Shown here piece by piece: positions 10,741-25,566 of a stretch of 33,627 nt of DNA. The position numbers were made by a program, and so were the translations under genes. Source of the DNA: a phage; NCBI GenBank assembly GCA_012551655.1, contig GCA_012551655.1_3034.1; one strand, given 5' to 3'. A model generated the notes under the pieces. That model searched no databases, was not told the DNA's origin, and saw nothing but the letters and a program-made list of their open reading frames with translations. The first letter of the stretch is position 1. Every line of letters begins with the position of its first letter.

Positions 10741-10745
10741 TAAAA

Positions 10746-10759
10746 GGGCCTTCGGGCCC
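10746..10759 (+). other. GGGCC-UUCG-GGCCC RNA hairpin at the 37-38 junction (no U-tract)
   Basis: Perfect 5-bp GC stem with UUCG tetraloop 6 nt after the 37 stop, followed by SD ggagg and the 38 ATG. Confidence 0.5.
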
Positions 10760-10770
10760 TGGAGGTTTAT

Positions 10771-15423: not shown

Positions 15424-15573
15424 TTACTGCATGACTGTGATAACTGTCATGATAACACGTTGAATTCCGAACGCAAGAAGACCTCCTGCTACGGCTGGAA
15501 CAACGCCTAAACCTGCCAGTAAAATGCTACCAGATACTAATGCAGCGCTTGTAATACCTATGAATGGACTCAT
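15424..15573 (-). CDS. Hypothetical 49-aa hydrophobic (Gly/Ala-rich) membrane peptide, 52.1-like position
   Basis: ATG at 15573 overlaps the gene 52 stop (ATGA); MSPFIGITSAALVSGSILLAGLGVVPAVAGGLLAFGIQRVIMTVITVMQ; not in the ORF track. Confidence 0.45.
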   Translation of the reverse strand: MSPFIGITSAALVSGSILLAGLGVVPAVAGGLLAFGIQRVIMTVITVMQ

Positions 15574-16898
15574 TTGATTTCCTCTAAATCTTTGGTGTAT
15601 TCTGTAACTACATCAGTAGTTTTCCAATATTCGTTTTCTTCTTTTTTAGCTTTAGCTTCTTCAGCAAGTTTCTTCGCTTCATCGGAAGTCATATGAAAAA
15701 TATTCATTCCAACTAGTTTATCAACATAAGAAGAATACATATCGATTTTCGAAAGTTCTTCGGTCAGTTCTTTACGAGTTTTACCCTGTACAACAATTTC
15801 ACCTGAAATTACTTTCTTAATGAAATGTGCCTTGGCAAAGGCTAAACGAAAAGCAGATTCAGTTTCTTTAATTTTGTTATCAATTCGTTTTTGGACATAA
15901 GTTTTACGAACTTCAACAAAGTCTTTAATTAAATCAACTACGTTATCGTAAACTTGTAGTTTTCCTTTCTCATTAATAACCGTAATATTCTGAGAACGAC
16001 GCTCAATCAACCCGAAGTCTTTCATAATTTTTGCATGACGTTCTTCTTCATTATCGCTCAAAGAATATTCTTTGCGGAATTTAACTTTGAATCCAAAACC
16101 ATGCTCACCACAAGCATCATCCCATGTAATGAAGCCTTTATCTTCAAGTGGGTCTAAGATTTTACTCACATAAGTTTCACGATCATACTTATACGGAATC
16201 TCAGTGATATGCATTTGAGTTCGTGAAGTAAACTTATATGTTCCACGAATTTCATATTGCCCATCAATTTCAACGACTTCACCGCGAAATTCTGGGAATT
16301 CTACCTTCGGTTTAGTTACTTTCTTTCCTTGAAGAGCTTGCAGTACAGCTTTCTTAACAGAAGAAACACTATGAGGAAGAATGTAAGTTGCATAACCAGT
16401 TGCAATACCGGAAACGCCATTAAGAAGAACAGTAGGAATAATAGGCAAATAGAAAGCAGGCGGAATGTGTTCTTTATCTTGATGTACCGGAGCATATTCA
16501 GTATCTTTATATACGTTATAGAAATTTTTACTTACACGAGCAAAAATATAACGACTTGCTGCTGCTTTTTGAACGGTACGAGAACCAAAGTTTCCTTGAC
16601 CATCTAACAGAGGAAAGTTATTATTCCAAGTATTAGCCATCAAAGCACCTGCATCTTGTGCAGAGTTTTCGCCATGGTGATATCCAAGGTCTGCTACACC
16701 ACCTGCAATAGAAGCGAGTTTGTGAAACTTATCTTTATTTCCTCGTGCCAAATCAAGAGCTCGAGCAATAACAAATCGTTGAACTGGCTTAAATCCATCA
16801 ATCATATTTGGAATGGCACGATTTTCAACCGTGTACATAGCATAAGCCAATGCTTCATTATCAATGATACTTTTTAAATCGCGATTATTCAGTTGCAT
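15570..16898 (-). CDS. 52: DNA topoisomerase II medium subunit gp52 (GyrA-like, 442 aa)
   Basis: 442 aa as T4 gp52; AAASRYIF active-site-Tyr-like motif; position downstream of ac/stp and upstream of motA. Confidence 0.9.
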   Translation of the reverse strand: MQLNNRDLKSIIDNEALAYAMYTVENRAIPNMIDGFKPVQRFVIARALDLARGNKDKFHKLASIAGGVADLGYHHGENSAQDAGALMANTWNNNFPLLDGQGNFGSRTVQKAAASRYIFARVSKNFYNVYKDTEYAPVHQDKEHIPPAFYLPIIPTVLLNGVSGIATGYATYILPHSVSSVKKAVLQALQGKKVTKPKVEFPEFRGEVVEIDGQYEIRGTYKFTSRTQMHITEIPYKYDRETYVSKILDPLEDKGFITWDDACGEHGFGFKVKFRKEYSLSDNEEERHAKIMKDFGLIERRSQNITVINEKGKLQVYDNVVDLIKDFVEVRKTYVQKRIDNKIKETESAFRLAFAKAHFIKKVISGEIVVQGKTRKELTEELSKIDMYSSYVDKLVGMNIFHMTSDEAKKLAEEAKAKKEENEYWKTTDVVTEYTKDLEEIK

Positions 16899-16902
16899 AA
16901 AT

Positions 16903-17043
16903 TTACCATACTAGTGAATGTAGTGCCATAATAACATCAGAAATGAAAAGCACGACTTGAATTAATCCGAACATTATTCCGTGATATAACGCTACCAATA
17001 AAGTAGCAAGGGCTAGTGAATAGCCCAAGATTTTCTTAATCAT
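16903..17043 (-). CDS. Hypothetical 46-aa hydrophobic membrane peptide immediately upstream of 52
   Basis: MIKKILGYSLALATLLVALYHGIMFGLIQVVLFISDVIMALHSLVW; stop 4 nt before the 52 ATG (52 has no good SD, so coupling is plausible); own SD weak. Confidence 0.4.
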   Translation of the reverse strand: MIKKILGYSLALATLLVALYHGIMFGLIQVVLFISDVIMALHSLVW

Positions 17044-17194
17044 TAGTAGATAACAACACAAATGTTAAATATGCACACATACCCTGGGCTAAAGCTTGTG
17101 AAAACACACTGCTAGCATCGATACAGATAGTTAAAACACATGCTACTATCCAACAAATAAATGAAATAACTCCTAATAATTTTGCGATATTCAT
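17036..17194 (-). CDS. Ac-like small membrane protein, copy 1 (52 aa)
   Basis: Track ORF 17036..17224 trimmed to ATG at 17194 with GAGGAG SD; MNIAKLLGVISFICWIVACVLTICIDASSVFSQALAQGMCAYLTFVLLSTND; size and position of T4 ac. Confidence 0.55.
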   Translation of the reverse strand: MNIAKLLGVISFICWIVACVLTICIDASSVFSQALAQGMCAYLTFVLLSTND

Positions 17195-17204
17195 AATATT
17201 CTCC

Positions 17205-17360
17205 TCAACTATTTTTAGAACCAATGTACGCGAATAATGATAAAATCGCTAATACGCCCTGAGCAGATGCTTGCAAAAATACTGAAGTTTCTCCAGTTAT
17301 TACTGTTCCGATGCATAAAAAGAACCAACAGAAAAAGGCTATACCGTGAACAAGTTTCAT
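17205..17360 (-). CDS. Ac-like small membrane protein, copy 2 (51 aa), paralog of copy 1
   Basis: ATG at 17360 with GAGGA SD; MKLVHGIAFFCWFFLCIGTVITGETSVFLQASAQGVLAILSLFAYIGSKNS; shares F-x-CW...SVF-Q-A-AQG pattern with copy 1; not in the ORF track. Confidence 0.55.
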   Translation of the reverse strand: MKLVHGIAFFCWFFLCIGTVITGETSVFLQASAQGVLAILSLFAYIGSKNS

Positions 17361-17367
17361 ATTTTCC

Positions 17368-17448
17368 TCACTGGCGTCCGAAGACGCCTTTAGTTTTAAG
17401 ATTGTTACGATAGAACTGCATCACATGTTCGTTATGGAAATTACTCAT
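17368..17448 (-). CDS. stp: Stp peptide (26 aa)
   Basis: Reverse translation gives [26 protein letters not shown], which I recognise as T4 Stp; ATG overlaps the ndd stop by 1 nt; 3' end contains a GGCGUC-UUCG-GACGCC hairpin. Confidence 0.8.
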
Positions 17449-17906
17449 TAATATGCCTGCAAAACAAATTTAAAGTTATCAGCCAACATACGGTTCATTT
17501 CTTCAAGTGTTTGATACTCAGAATGATGATTACGAGTAAACGCCAAAGCTAACTGACCTTTACCAAATCCCGTCGTCAGAGGTTTCATCTTAGAAGCAGG
17601 CAGATAAAATACTGTGTATGGAACATTGTTATTTGCAATAGTACGCGCAAGCTGAGACCGACGCTGACGAATATGACTTAGAACCGCACTGAATCCTTGC
17701 TTAGAACGCTGATTACCTACATAAAATCGTGCAGACACGCACGGATTACTAAATGGACGACCATCTAATTTACACACTAAAAAGTAAAATCCAGGTTTAG
17801 ATAAAATATCTTTGTGTGGAGTTCCCAAAAACCACTCACCGTTCTTGATTGTACCAATAACGGTAGCGCCTGCATTATTCAGATCAGTAACAGTCATATA
17901 TTTCAT
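17448..17906 (-). CDS. ndd: Ndd nucleoid disruption protein (151 aa)
   Basis: Track ORF 17448..17954 trimmed to ATG at 17906 (GAGGA SD): [21 protein letters not shown]... matches recalled T4 Ndd. Confidence 0.85.
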
Positions 17907-17938
17907 ATTAATTTCCTCTAAATTATTTTCTACTCCAA

Positions 17939-17960
17939 GGCCGCATGAATACACGCGGCC
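17939..17960 (-). other. Intergenic hairpin GGCCGC...GCGGCC upstream of ndd
   Basis: 6-bp GC stem with 10-nt loop; no U-tract. Confidence 0.4.
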
Positions 17961-17966
17961 ATTAAA

Positions 17967-18182
17967 TTAATCGTCGCAGTCGACGCTCAATTCCCAAAAC
18001 TCTTCTACGGTATAAGTTTCAGTATCATTTTCAATACAGAAACGTTCATTACTATTGTTTGCTAAAGTAGCATTAACTGTCATTTTCTCGCTAGTGCTCT
18101 TAAGTGGTGAAATACGAATTAACTGATCACCATTATCTAAACAAAAAATTTCACCAACTTTTACATCTTTAAAGCTTTTCAT
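17967..18182 (-). CDS. Hypothetical acidic 71-aa protein
   Basis: ATG with GAGGTGA SD; MKSFKDVKVGEIFCLDNGDQLIRISPLK... Confidence 0.55.
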   Translation of the reverse strand: MKSFKDVKVGEIFCLDNGDQLIRISPLKSTSEKMTVNATLANNSNERFCIENDTETYTVEEFWELSVDCDD

Positions 18183-20285: not shown

Positions 20286-21221
20286 TTTAAATTGTTCAGT
20301 AACGTCTTCAACTACTTCGTATTGGCAGGTACGCATTTTAGCATCGTTGTAATCAATCGGAATTGATACTACATCACGTGGATGTACTTTAACTTTTACA
20401 ACTCGGCTGGTTGAACTGCCAAAGTGACGAATATAAGATTTAGAACACACATGCAGACCACGAGAACAAGTTTGTGTATCATCGTCATTCACACGAGTAC
20501 GCGGCATTTTAACTACTTTACCAGGACTGTTATCAAAGGTGTTTGAGTGACAGTCAAAGTAGTTGTCACGAACTACTTTCCAAGCATAGAAGTAACCATC
20601 TTCTGTAATTTCAATATCGTTTGCTACCAAGAAATCAAAGAGTCGAGATACCGCTTTCTGGCTTGGGTTTTCCAGCAGATTTTCCAAGAACGGAAAATAA
20701 AATTCAAAGTTTTCACCTTTTTCCATCGAATCGAGAATACGATCAACTAAACCAGACCGTAATTCGATATTTTGATAGAACAAGCTTCCGCCTTCAATTC
20801 GAACATCGCCGGAAATATATTTTTCAACAGCGCGACGAACATTAATTTTTTGTGCCGCTTCTTCCAACTTATCTGCTACAAGCAGATTAAGAATTTCCTG
20901 GAAGTTTGAATGAGTATTAGGAGTTGCGTTATAAGTTACACCGTCAACAGTAATTGAAATGAATTTTTTAGATGCATTCCAAATAATGTCAGATTTAGCA
21001 ACTGGAGCAATAACTGCATCGCTATTAACTTTAATTGTAATATCACCGCTAATAGTAACTTTAGAGCGTTTAGCTTCTTCAGCATTTTTCAAAACACGAC
21101 GAATTGTGTCAACCGATACACCTTGCCAATCAGCCAATTCCTGTTGGGTGTAATTACCGCTTGAATACAATTTAACAATTTCAGCTTGTTCGTTTTTGGT
21201 CAGGCATTTAATATTGTACAT
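20283..21221 (-). CDS. rIIB: rIIB protein (312 aa)
   Basis: 312 aa as T4 rIIB, immediately downstream of the 725-aa rIIA; MYNIKCLTKNEQAEIVKLYSSGNYTQQELADWQG... Confidence 0.9.
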   Translation of the reverse strand: MYNIKCLTKNEQAEIVKLYSSGNYTQQELADWQGVSVDTIRRVLKNAEEAKRSKVTISGDITIKVNSDAVIAPVAKSDIIWNASKKFISITVDGVTYNATPNTHSNFQEILNLLVADKLEEAAQKINVRRAVEKYISGDVRIEGGSLFYQNIELRSGLVDRILDSMEKGENFEFYFPFLENLLENPSQKAVSRLFDFLVANDIEITEDGYFYAWKVVRDNYFDCHSNTFDNSPGKVVKMPRTRVNDDDTQTCSRGLHVCSKSYIRHFGSSTSRVVKVKVHPRDVVSIPIDYNDAKMRTCQYEVVEDVTEQFK

Positions 21222-23649: not shown

Positions 23650-23679
23650 ATTATACCACATCCTTGTGGTAAAGTAAAC
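23650..23679 (-). promoter_or_regulatory. T4-type early promoter for rIIA.1-rIIA, overlapping the 3' end of gene 39
   Basis: GTTTAC (23679-23674), 18 bp, TATAAT (23655-23650). Confidence 0.55.
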
Positions 23680-25496
23680 TACTGGCTCATCCATTCTTTA
23701 CGAAGGTCAGCATTATCTCCCATGAGCATTTCAAAAAGCTCTTTCCAGTTCTCAGGAAGTTTAACAACATCATATACTGGATTTTGAATCATCTCACGAT
23801 ATTCAGATTTTTCCAAAGAGCCAAGTCCTTTAATATAACGGATGCTATGTTTAGGTAGAGCATCTTTGGCACTCTCATATTCAGCGACTGTATAAAACCA
23901 TTCTTGTTTTTTACCGACCTGAGCGATGATTACAGGAGTTTTGACAAAGCGAATTCGTCCTTGCTCAAACAATTCTGGCCAATTACTAAAAAATCCAAGC
24001 AGAGAAGGATAAATGCTTCCTAGACCATCATGGTCAGCATCAGTCATAATAGCAATATTATGATAATTCAAGTTTTCAGCTTTTTCACCGAGAACTAATC
24101 CAGTGATTGCGCAAATATCAAATAGTTCTTTGTTTTTAAGCATATCAGCATATGACATACCCCAACTATTAAGAACTTTACCACGCAATGGATAACCACC
24201 ATGAAGTTCTTTATCACGAACATCAATAAGATATCCGATAGCCGAATCACCCTCAGTCAAGAAAAGAGTCGTGTCAGCATCTTTACCACAAAGATTCGCT
24301 TTAATATGTTTATGAACCTTAGCTTTAGAAGCCTTTTTAGCTGCTTTTGTTTCTGCTGCTTTTTCTGCTGCCAATTTACGAGCCAAAGCAGCTTCAATAA
24401 TCGGCATTAGAATTGCTTCATTATTTAGAATAGCACGTGAAATCTTTTTAGCATCAAGCTGAATATGACTACGGATTTCACCAAATGGAGAAGTCAAACG
24501 CTCTTTAGTTTGAGAATCAAATCGCATGTTTTTCATATCACGAACAAACATAACGATAGTCAAACATTCTTTAACACGTGCTTTAGTTACATCAATTTTG
24601 AATTTACGTTTGATTTGTGGAATAAGGTCTTCACAAATATCATCCATAACACAGTCAATGTGATGGCCACCATTCTTAGTGTGAATGTTATTCACATAAG
24701 TTAATTGACGAAATCCATCCGGTGAACGACCAACCGCAATAGAACAATTTTCTTGTTCTTGAACAATAGCATGTTCATCATACTGTCGTGCATATTTCTT
24801 AAAATTACCCTGAACCTTTTTACCATTAAAGGTAAATTGAATATCAGGATAAACAACAGCAAGTGTCTGGAGACGATCTAGTGTAATGTCAAGATAAACT
24901 TGGGACAGCTCATTAGTTTCAAATGACATAAAATCAGGAATGAAAGTAACACGAGTTCCTTTCCATTTTCCTGGAATAGTTTCCCATGATTTATTTTCCA
25001 TGCCATTTGAACAACGAACTACAATATTATTTTGACCATCGCCAGTTTCACCAACAAACATCACAGAAAAAATGTTAGTTAAACTAGAACCAACACCGTT
25101 CATACCGCCGGTGACGCGTTCTTTATCATCACCGAAGTTACCACCTGCTTTTGGAATAGTCCATGCAGCAACAGGACCAGGAATTTCTTCACCGGTAGGT
25201 GTTTTAACCATCGCTTGTGGAATACCGCGACCGTTATCTTCAACTGTTACTTGATTGTTTTTAATAGTAACGTTAATTTTATTTGCGAATTTAAACTTAG
25301 TACGAATACCTTCATCTACTGAGTTATCGATAATTTCATCAATAAGCTTAACAAGACCAGGTACATACTGAACACTTTCCCATTTACCAAACAGAAAGCG
25401 CTCATGCATTTCATTAGCAGAAGAACCAATGTACATGCCGCTACGCTTTTTGATATGTTCAATATCGCTCAGAATTTTAATTTCATTCTTAATCAT
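23679..25496 (-). CDS. 39: DNA topoisomerase II large subunit gp39, unsplit (605 aa; GyrB-like ATPase plus Toprim)
   Basis: Track ORF begins at GTG; ATG at 25496 with GAGGA SD. Motifs EIIDNSVDE and DNGRGIP (GHKL ATPase), EGDSA and DADHDG (Toprim). Single continuous ORF. Confidence 0.9.
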   Translation of the reverse strand: MIKNEIKILSDIEHIKKRSGMYIGSSANEMHERFLFGKWESVQYVPGLVKLIDEIIDNSVDEGIRTKFKFANKINVTIKNNQVTVEDNGRGIPQAMVKTPTGEEIPGPVAAWTIPKAGGNFGDDKERVTGGMNGVGSSLTNIFSVMFVGETGDGQNNIVVRCSNGMENKSWETIPGKWKGTRVTFIPDFMSFETNELSQVYLDITLDRLQTLAVVYPDIQFTFNGKKVQGNFKKYARQYDEHAIVQEQENCSIAVGRSPDGFRQLTYVNNIHTKNGGHHIDCVMDDICEDLIPQIKRKFKIDVTKARVKECLTIVMFVRDMKNMRFDSQTKERLTSPFGEIRSHIQLDAKKISRAILNNEAILMPIIEAALARKLAAEKAAETKAAKKASKAKVHKHIKANLCGKDADTTLFLTEGDSAIGYLIDVRDKELHGGYPLRGKVLNSWGMSYADMLKNKELFDICAITGLVLGEKAENLNYHNIAIMTDADHDGLGSIYPSLLGFFSNWPELFEQGRIRFVKTPVIIAQVGKKQEWFYTVAEYESAKDALPKHSIRYIKGLGSLEKSEYREMIQNPVYDVVKLPENWKELFEMLMGDNADLRKEWMSQ

Positions 25497-25523
25497 CACT
25501 TATCCTCGTTTGGTTTCGGGAAT

Positions 25524-25548: not shown

Positions 25549-25566
25549 AAAGGCCCGAAGGCCTTT
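25549..25566 (-). other. AAAGGCC-UUCG-GGCCUUU hairpin between the lipoprotein gene and the gene 39 promoter
   Basis: 7-bp stem, UUCG loop on the minus-strand RNA; short U-run only. Confidence 0.45.

Follow-up and report, generated by a model that had tools for sequence, protein, structure and literature searches.

The window analysed here, a stretch of phage DNA of 33,627 nucleotides, contains a 26-codon reading frame whose last codons also spell a stable RNA hairpin. This locus raises the question of which gene is present, and whether the hairpin is a mere by-product of the peptide encoded by the same bases or an RNA element selected in addition to it.

Identity and Genomic Context of the stp Gene

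A preliminary description of this DNA had placed the ORF at 17368-17448 and named its product Stp. Coordinates and peptide turned out to be exact; the strand, which had been left unstated, is minus according to the ORF list and the sequence (26 codons followed by the stop TGA at 17370..17368), and the plus-strand translation of 17368-17448 yields nothing Stp-like. The peptide is identical to T4 Stp (NP_049878.1, T4p267) in 26 out of 26 residues. Realignment to T4 stp, which had been proposed as a check, left the peptide the same, with 80 of 81 nt shared and a single, synonymous difference (His8, CAC>CAT). The Pfam family PF08133 “Anticodon nuclease activator family” covers residues 1-26 of 26 at 75.3 bits (curated cut-off 25 bits), PHROG 6763 matches with E = 4.4e-21, and the gene order ndd, stp, ac-family, then 52.1 and 52, is the Tevenvirinae synteny expected for stp. 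Judged by these matches, the region 17448..17368 (minus strand) is the stp gene of a T4-like phage and thus a re-identification of an annotated T4 gene.

All genes neighbouring stp are located on the minus strand. Upstream, ndd (17448..17906, minus strand) encodes the nucleoid disruption protein with 152 aa counted from the ATG, as supported by PF06591 (317 bits), PHROG 1102 and the annotations of matching records; its stop codon shares one base with the stp start codon (TAATG). Downstream, stp is followed by an ac-family paralog (17205..17360, minus strand) encoding a small membrane protein of 51 aa (MKLVHGIAFF..., PHROG 2501 at 6e-26), annotated as “Acridine resistance” in Escherichia phage vB_Eco_EL, and by a second ac-family copy of 52 aa (17036..17194, minus strand; MNIAKLL..., PHROG 2501 at 3.7e-25), which matches T4 ac and represents the T4-type ac gene. 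The 46-aa homolog of gene 52.1 (16903..17043, minus strand) was assigned by Pfam DUF7396, PHROG 3595 and the T4 annotation, and gene 52, encoding the medium subunit of topoisomerase II, is located after 52.1 at 15570..16898.

In the T4 reference annotation, the order at the same place is ndd - stp - ac - 52.1 - 52, and the T4 record gives the stp product (NP_049878.1) as a peptide of 26 aa that activates the lysyl-tRNA endonuclease PrrC of the host. Peptide, hairpin, the junction of stop codon, Shine-Dalgarno sequence and ATG (base for base), and the upstream ndd gene are common to T4 and the window, whereas the gene past the junction differs, being the extra ac-family paralog here and ac itself in T4. 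The preliminary description had omitted that the arrangement is the annotated T4 one, base for base, and that CUUCGG hairpins have long been known in T4 mRNAs. The paralog at 17205..17360 is missing from T4 at this position, where the T4 alignment diverges right after ATGAA; accordingly, two tandem ac-family genes, both assigned to PHROG 2501, occur in the window versus one in T4, with the additional copy inserted between stp and the T4-type ac. The single-ac arrangement of T4 looks like a deletion between two similar Shine-Dalgarno/ATGAA junctions.

A stretch of 851 nt around stp matches 562 phage records, nearly all of them T4-like, with Escherichia phage vB_Eco_EL as the best match (98.6%). 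Further genes of the window encode DenB, rIIB, an unsplit large subunit of topoisomerase II and a T2-type gp38 adhesin, which identifies the window as part of a Tequatrovirus genome. The large topoisomerase subunit is encoded by a single ORF of 606 aa (23679-25499, minus strand) spanning the gp39 and gp60 parts, and thus this phage lacks the gene 39/60 split of T4 and the translational bypass of gene 60. In vB_Eco_EL (OZ034682; 2053-2141 of the retrieved stretch) as well as in many other deposited T4-like genomes, the stp ORF is intact and carries no CDS annotation. Consequently, annotation for phage therapy or host-range prediction misses a known trigger of host defence in these genomes.

Known Function of Stp

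Stp is necessary and sufficient for activation of PrrC, the latent tRNA-Lys anticodon nuclease (Uzan and Miller 2010, PMC3014915). According to the same review, Stp relieves type Ic restriction (EcoprrI, EcoR124I) and does not relieve type Ia restriction (EcoKI, EcoBI), the block of restriction thereby unmasks PrrC, and the cut tRNA is repaired by phage polynucleotide kinase and RNA ligase 1. Interference with host type I restriction and triggering of PrrC, as attributed to the peptide in the preliminary description, agree with this account, refined by the limitation to type Ic. Suppressor and loss-of-function mutations cluster at residues 4-14, T4 relatives show hardly any variation in the N-terminal 18 residues, and deletion of the last eight stp codons lowers both activities only moderately (PMC3014915).

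In the window, all of the N-terminal 18 residues, including the mutation cluster at 4-14, are identical to those of T4. Inhibition of type Ic restriction and activation of PrrC, which are known for the identical T4 peptide, would thus be the expected role of the Stp encoded here. Following the literature on T4, the 26-residue peptide would bind the host type Ic complex EcoprrI and block DNA restriction; the change in the Stp-bound complex would unmask the associated latent PrrC, which then cuts tRNA-Lys, and the phage would subsequently mend the tRNA by means of polynucleotide kinase and RNA ligase 1, the genes of which are both located outside the window. In T4 Stp, the activity resides in the N-terminal 18 residues. 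Stp is double-edged, acting as an anti-restriction factor and at the same time as the trigger of the PrrC abortive-infection nuclease.

A cUUCGg Hairpin in the Coding End of stp

The segment GGCGUC-UUCG-GACGCC, which had been described as serving both as coding sequence and as RNA hairpin, is located at 17388..17373 on the minus strand and forms a six-pair stem (17373..17388) with the loop at 17382..17379. It is composed of the codons GGC GUC UUC GGA CGC CAG, i.e., Gly21-Val22-Phe23-Gly24-Arg25 and the first base of Gln26. For an isolated 22-mer containing the hairpin, a free energy of -11.5 kcal/mol was predicted, with the hairpin accounting for 99% of the ensemble (z = -4.46; none of 200 shuffles was equally stable), and in a context of 151 nt the predicted pairing probability of the stem is approximately 1. 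The location just before the Shine-Dalgarno sequence of the ac-like gene was confirmed as well: the hairpin ends 3 nt before GAGG and one base before GUGAGG, which comprises stop codon and Shine-Dalgarno sequence. GAGG (17369..17366) overlaps the stp stop codon and the next ATG is situated at 17360..17358, so that the junction TGAGGAAAATATG (17358..17370, minus strand) consists of stp stop, overlapping GAGG, spacer and the ac-family start codon.

C(UUCG)G hairpins were described in T4 mRNAs by Tuerk et al. (1988, PNAS 85:1364), as cited in PMC4371310 and PMC8948821, and their exceptional stability became apparent as a reverse-transcriptase stop. The class is defined as UUCG closed by C-G and flanked by 2-8 complementary bases (PMC8948821); the stp hairpin, with its UUCG loop, C-G closing pair and six Watson-Crick pairs, falls within this definition. 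The UUCG loop is formed on the minus strand only, which is the transcribed strand. In the window, five GC-rich CUUCGG hairpins with a stem of at least six pairs were found, all on the locally transcribed strand and four of them on the minus strand, where 0.64 would be expected even with a stem of at least four pairs. Three of the others (25566-25549, 20286-20267, and 20052-20035, minus strand) are situated at gene ends and are terminator-like with flanking A- and T-tracts; the remaining one (10745-10760, plus strand) is located just after gene 37. The rIIB stop codon is part of the 5' arm of the hairpin at 20286, and the first base of that at 25566 is the final base of a stop codon.

The stp hairpin thus belongs to the CUUCGG hairpins already known from T4. 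It is like the rest of this over-represented class in its cUUCGg loop, GC-rich stem and location on the transcribed strand, and it stands out only by its position, with all of its bases in a coding sequence, whereas most of the described cases are intergenic. A covariance scan of 16800-18100 against Rfam at a permissive E-value gave chance-level hits only (E >= 2, far below gathering thresholds). The exact 16-mer of the hairpin occurs in 110 stretches of IMG/VR, a few of which are T4-like stp loci and the rest other contigs of many sizes; the total seems to be approximately what is expected from the volume of contigs alone and is therefore uninformative.

Codon Choice versus Peptide Constraint

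Four synonymous third bases contribute to the stem (Gly21, Val22, Gly24, and Arg25), and the loop additionally requires UUC for Phe. The codons in question are rare in the minus-strand genes of the window (GGC 12%, GTC 6.5%, TTC 24%, and CGC 11.5%). Given the amino acids, the probability of exactly these hairpin codons is 6.7e-5, and that of six Watson-Crick pairs under local codon usage is 2.8e-4. When synonymous codons were resampled according to their usage in the early-strand (minus) genes of the window, 0.08% of 5000 trials were as stable as the native sequence (p = 8e-4). The GVFGR tail itself is prone to weak self-complementarity, with a probability of 0.098 if G.U pairs are allowed.

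A natural counterpart is provided by Kagunavirus siphophages (K1ind2 and IMG/VR relatives), in which the tail [TA]KGVFGK is encoded by GGA/GGG GTG TTT GGA AAA. Here the predicted energy is 0 kcal/mol, i.e., no structure is formed, and about half of all codons are synonymously changed in comparison to stp. Taking the rare-codon statistics and the Kagunavirus tail together, the peptide sequence does not by itself dictate the hairpin. The comparison with Kagunavirus furthermore argues that the amino acids of the tail are conserved independently of the hairpin and that the hairpin is an added, T-even-specific layer, which makes it a clear case, provided by nature, of codon choice imposing an RNA structure on a peptide gene.

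It is on codon statistics and the Kagunavirus contrast that the case for selection is based, rather than on covariation. Among the variants compared, compensatory double substitutions in the stem were absent and only wobble-preserving single changes were seen. Synonymous variation affects two out of five hairpin codons versus approximately 12 out of 18 upstream stp codons, which is not significantly lower. With regard to the downstream gene, the predicted accessibility of the Shine-Dalgarno sequence is 0.28 for the native sequence versus a mean of 0.28 for 250 synonymous recodings of codons 21-25; insulation or sequestration of the ac-family ribosome-binding site by the hairpin was dropped as a candidate function because accessibility was unchanged by recoding.

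Distribution and Variants of the Hairpin

The 45-nt hairpin/Shine-Dalgarno junction was found at a coverage of at least 80% in 509 phage records (Tevenvirinae), of which 279 are identical, and hairpin plus TGAGGAAAATATG are retained in Tequatro-, Dhaka-, and Gaprivervirus. Except for EC121, the variants seen mostly keep the pairing. A change of GGC to GGT results in a G.U pair (-8.9 kcal/mol), CAG>UAA in a G.U closing pair (-9.3 kcal/mol), and the Gaprivervirus loop is changed from UUCG to UUUG (-10.8 kcal/mol). In case of EC121 (MF001359; approximately 75-95 of the retrieved stretch), Val22Ile introduces an A.C mismatch into the stem and Gln26 is replaced by TAG; this is the only hairpin-weakening point variant seen.

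A T2-type junction without the hairpin occurs in approximately 32 records. In these phages, codons 1-18 of stp are joined to another tail, NFGILGFKK or NFGILGSKNS, which matches the 3' end of an ac-family paralog; in T2 (PV958097) and TOPO13 the variant-tail stp is located at 601-690 of each retrieved stretch. The match of the TOPO13 tail DNA to the 3' end of the ac paralog suggests that a deletion fused stp to this paralog. As T2-type phages exist without the hairpin and EC121 carries a mismatch, the hairpin is dispensable and any function it has must be non-essential.

The absence of the hairpin from T2-type phages is also an argument for the view that it has no function of its own and is a historical by-product, e.g., a former intergenic stem-loop that became part of the stp 3' end, or a fortuitous combination of codons hitch-hiking in a slowly diverging gene. 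The near dispensability of the last eight codons for the peptide (PMC3014915), the missing double covariation and the indifference of Shine-Dalgarno accessibility to recoding point in the same direction. However, a combination of rare codons with P ~3e-4 is difficult to reconcile with chance, and the structure has been kept across three genera while most other synonymous sites of stp vary. Furthermore, both stp copies of Dhakavirus retain the hairpin, and the preservation of the same amino acids without a hairpin in Kagunavirus indicates that the tail is more than a stem-loop that happens to be translated. We therefore consider a lack of function improbable.

Relation to Transcription Termination

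Equally improbable, in our view, is that the hairpin acts on the sense strand as an intrinsic terminator or as a pause site for RNA polymerase, partly ending the ndd-stp transcript so that expression of ac, 52.1, and 52 would depend on read-through. A GC-rich stem of 6 bp with a very stable loop would be appropriate for such a function, the other three minus-strand CUUCGG hairpins of the window are terminator-like, and the records of G4500, G9062, and KAW1E185 label exactly these 16 nt as “putative transcriptional terminator, -10.30”, a product of automated annotation. Unlike these three neighbours with their flanking A- and U-tracts, the stp hairpin lacks such tracts. Its sense-strand tail is AGUGAGGAAAAU, which falls outside the definition of an intrinsic terminator; the stem continues into AGUGAGGAAAAUAUG with no U-tract, and a consensus scan gave no call on the minus strand. 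Due to the absence of a U-tract after the stem, the hairpin is not a canonical terminator. In addition, the hairpin is part of a translated ORF, with the closely spaced next start 8 nt further downstream, so that ribosomes would unwind it. A literature search for maps of T4 transcript 3' ends returned nothing usable.

A translational role of the same region was considered in the form of stop read-through or gene-60-like bypassing at GGA...UGA GGA. This candidate was rejected, since the frame past the stp stop is not conserved between T4 and the window, where the downstream genes differ.

The stp/ac Junction as a Possible Mobile Unit

The junction TGAGGAAAATATG hardly varies among Tequatro-, Dhaka-, and Gaprivervirus, including phages with a different downstream ORF (ac', ac, or another ac-family gene). 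Dhakavirus, e.g., NC-G (334-414 and 568-675 of the retrieved stretch) and two further loci, contains two stp copies, each with the same hairpin end and each preceding a different ac-family gene. The second of these copies lacks the usual ATG and is part of a 35-aa ORF, in which an 11-residue leader (MIKKSWATVLR) replaces the initiator Met. In EAWsc9 (Gaprivervirus; approximately 60-130 of the retrieved stretch), a second locus consists of a 5'-truncated stp with hairpin, Shine-Dalgarno sequence and ATG, followed by an ac paralog that resembles the one in the window, and appears to be a remnant cassette. The constancy of hairpin and TGAGGAAAATATG with a changing downstream ORF, the tandem units of Dhakavirus and the EAWsc9 remnant tie the element to the cistron boundary and not to the peptide.

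Short conserved stem-loop junctions flanking variable small genes in a hyperplastic region are known from the PeSL promoter/stem-loop cassettes of T4-type phages (Arbiol et al. 2010, PMC2839356; Comeau et al. 2014, PMC4122927), and the stp junction resembles them in this respect. PeSL cassettes, however, are joined to an early promoter and occur in many copies per genome, whereas the stp hairpin has no promoter-like site next to it and is essentially single-copy, which places it outside the PeSL definition. By analogy, the junction could work mainly at the DNA level, providing short homology for duplication, deletion and swapping of stp-ac cassettes. Such a role would explain why the junction is constant while the ac-family genes behind it differ, why stp-hairpin-ac units occur in tandem in Dhakavirus and as a remnant in EAWsc9, and why cassette-sized insertions or deletions distinguish T4, the window, and T2 exactly at the junction. 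Nevertheless, we regard it as somewhat less probable than the two preceding alternatives: in 521 of 534 records the junction is found at one place per genome, the scan detected no early-promoter-like site adjacent to the hairpin, and short conserved junctions would result from shared ancestry alone.

The weakest alternative, and in our estimation a very improbable one, is an action of the palindrome on the plus strand, terminating antisense or late read-through transcription that enters the early region. On the plus strand, GGCGTC-CGAA-GACGCC runs into TTTAGTTTTA, and a T-rich tail is present in this reading only; the scan made a terminator-like call at 17373..17388, and the antisense hairpin is predicted at -10.3 kcal/mol. 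However, a search for late promoters (TATAAATA) on the plus strand gave none closer than 11570, and the cUUCGg loop with its special stability is confined to the minus strand. In VR7-type phages, which retain the hairpin, the codons upstream of it (AAA TTA ACT) provide a poorer antisense U-tract.

Proposed Role of the Hairpin

The reading that we favour, with a probability of roughly 0.8, is that of a Tequatrovirus stp gene with a hairpin that is a selected sense-strand RNA element, marks an mRNA boundary at the stp/ac junction, and is dispensable to the phage. The last 5.3 codons of stp are written in rare synonyms so that the mRNA is predicted to fold into the 6-bp cUUCGg hairpin, which belongs to the T4 CUUCGG class and would act as a boundary element, being neither a canonical terminator nor needed for the function of the Stp peptide. 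Since the element is tied to the cistron boundary, a role in mRNA boundary formation or stability is favoured on grounds of sequence comparison. The hairpin would most likely block 3'-to-5' exonucleases and stabilise the upstream ndd-stp message, or else fix the local fold beside the downstream translation start.

It is tempting to speculate further that the Stp tail in the Tevenvirinae is a true dual-coding segment, with KGVFG conserved across unrelated phage families and the hairpin superimposed by rare codons, and that the unit of stp 3' end, hairpin, stop/Shine-Dalgarno sequence and ATG is a portable expression junction, which was duplicated and re-used before different ac-family membrane-protein genes and governs either how these genes are expressed or how stable the message upstream is. 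This extended proposal is tentative and, taken as a whole, rather doubtful. The T4 stp gene, the role of Stp in anti-restriction and PrrC triggering, and the CUUCGG hairpin class (1988) are already known; the dual-coding and cassette reading represents a mildly new angle.

Stp-Like Genes outside the Tevenvirinae

By tblastn, Stp-like peptides were detected in 818 phage records, and beyond the Tevenvirinae they occur in Kagunavirus, Drexlerviridae, and Caminolopintovirus. The siphophage peptides (Kagunavirus K1ind2; U136B, ZL19, and XT34 of the Drexlerviridae; Caminolopintovirus STGO-35-1) have the same core [FW]HNEH[VI]MQ[FWL]YR..[LI]K, and the forms of Kagunavirus and ZL19 share the KTKGVFG tail with T4-like Stp. 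Otherwise the tails of these peptides are different. The genes also differ from the T-even ones in their genomic contexts, and none of them contains a hairpin in its coding end.

In case of U136B (Tlsvirus, T1-like), the Stp-like gene (601-681 of the retrieved stretch) is followed, after approximately 570 nt, by a gene for a putative polynucleotide kinase/phosphatase (1251 onward), so that the trigger of PrrC and one component of the counter-measure by tRNA repair are close neighbours. Several Drexlerviridae possess a strong conserved hairpin, e.g., GGGGTTGCGCTATAGTAACCCC, approximately 12 nt past the stop codon of the Stp-like gene, with TATAGT in the loop region; this hairpin may be a terminator or a promoter-associated structure.
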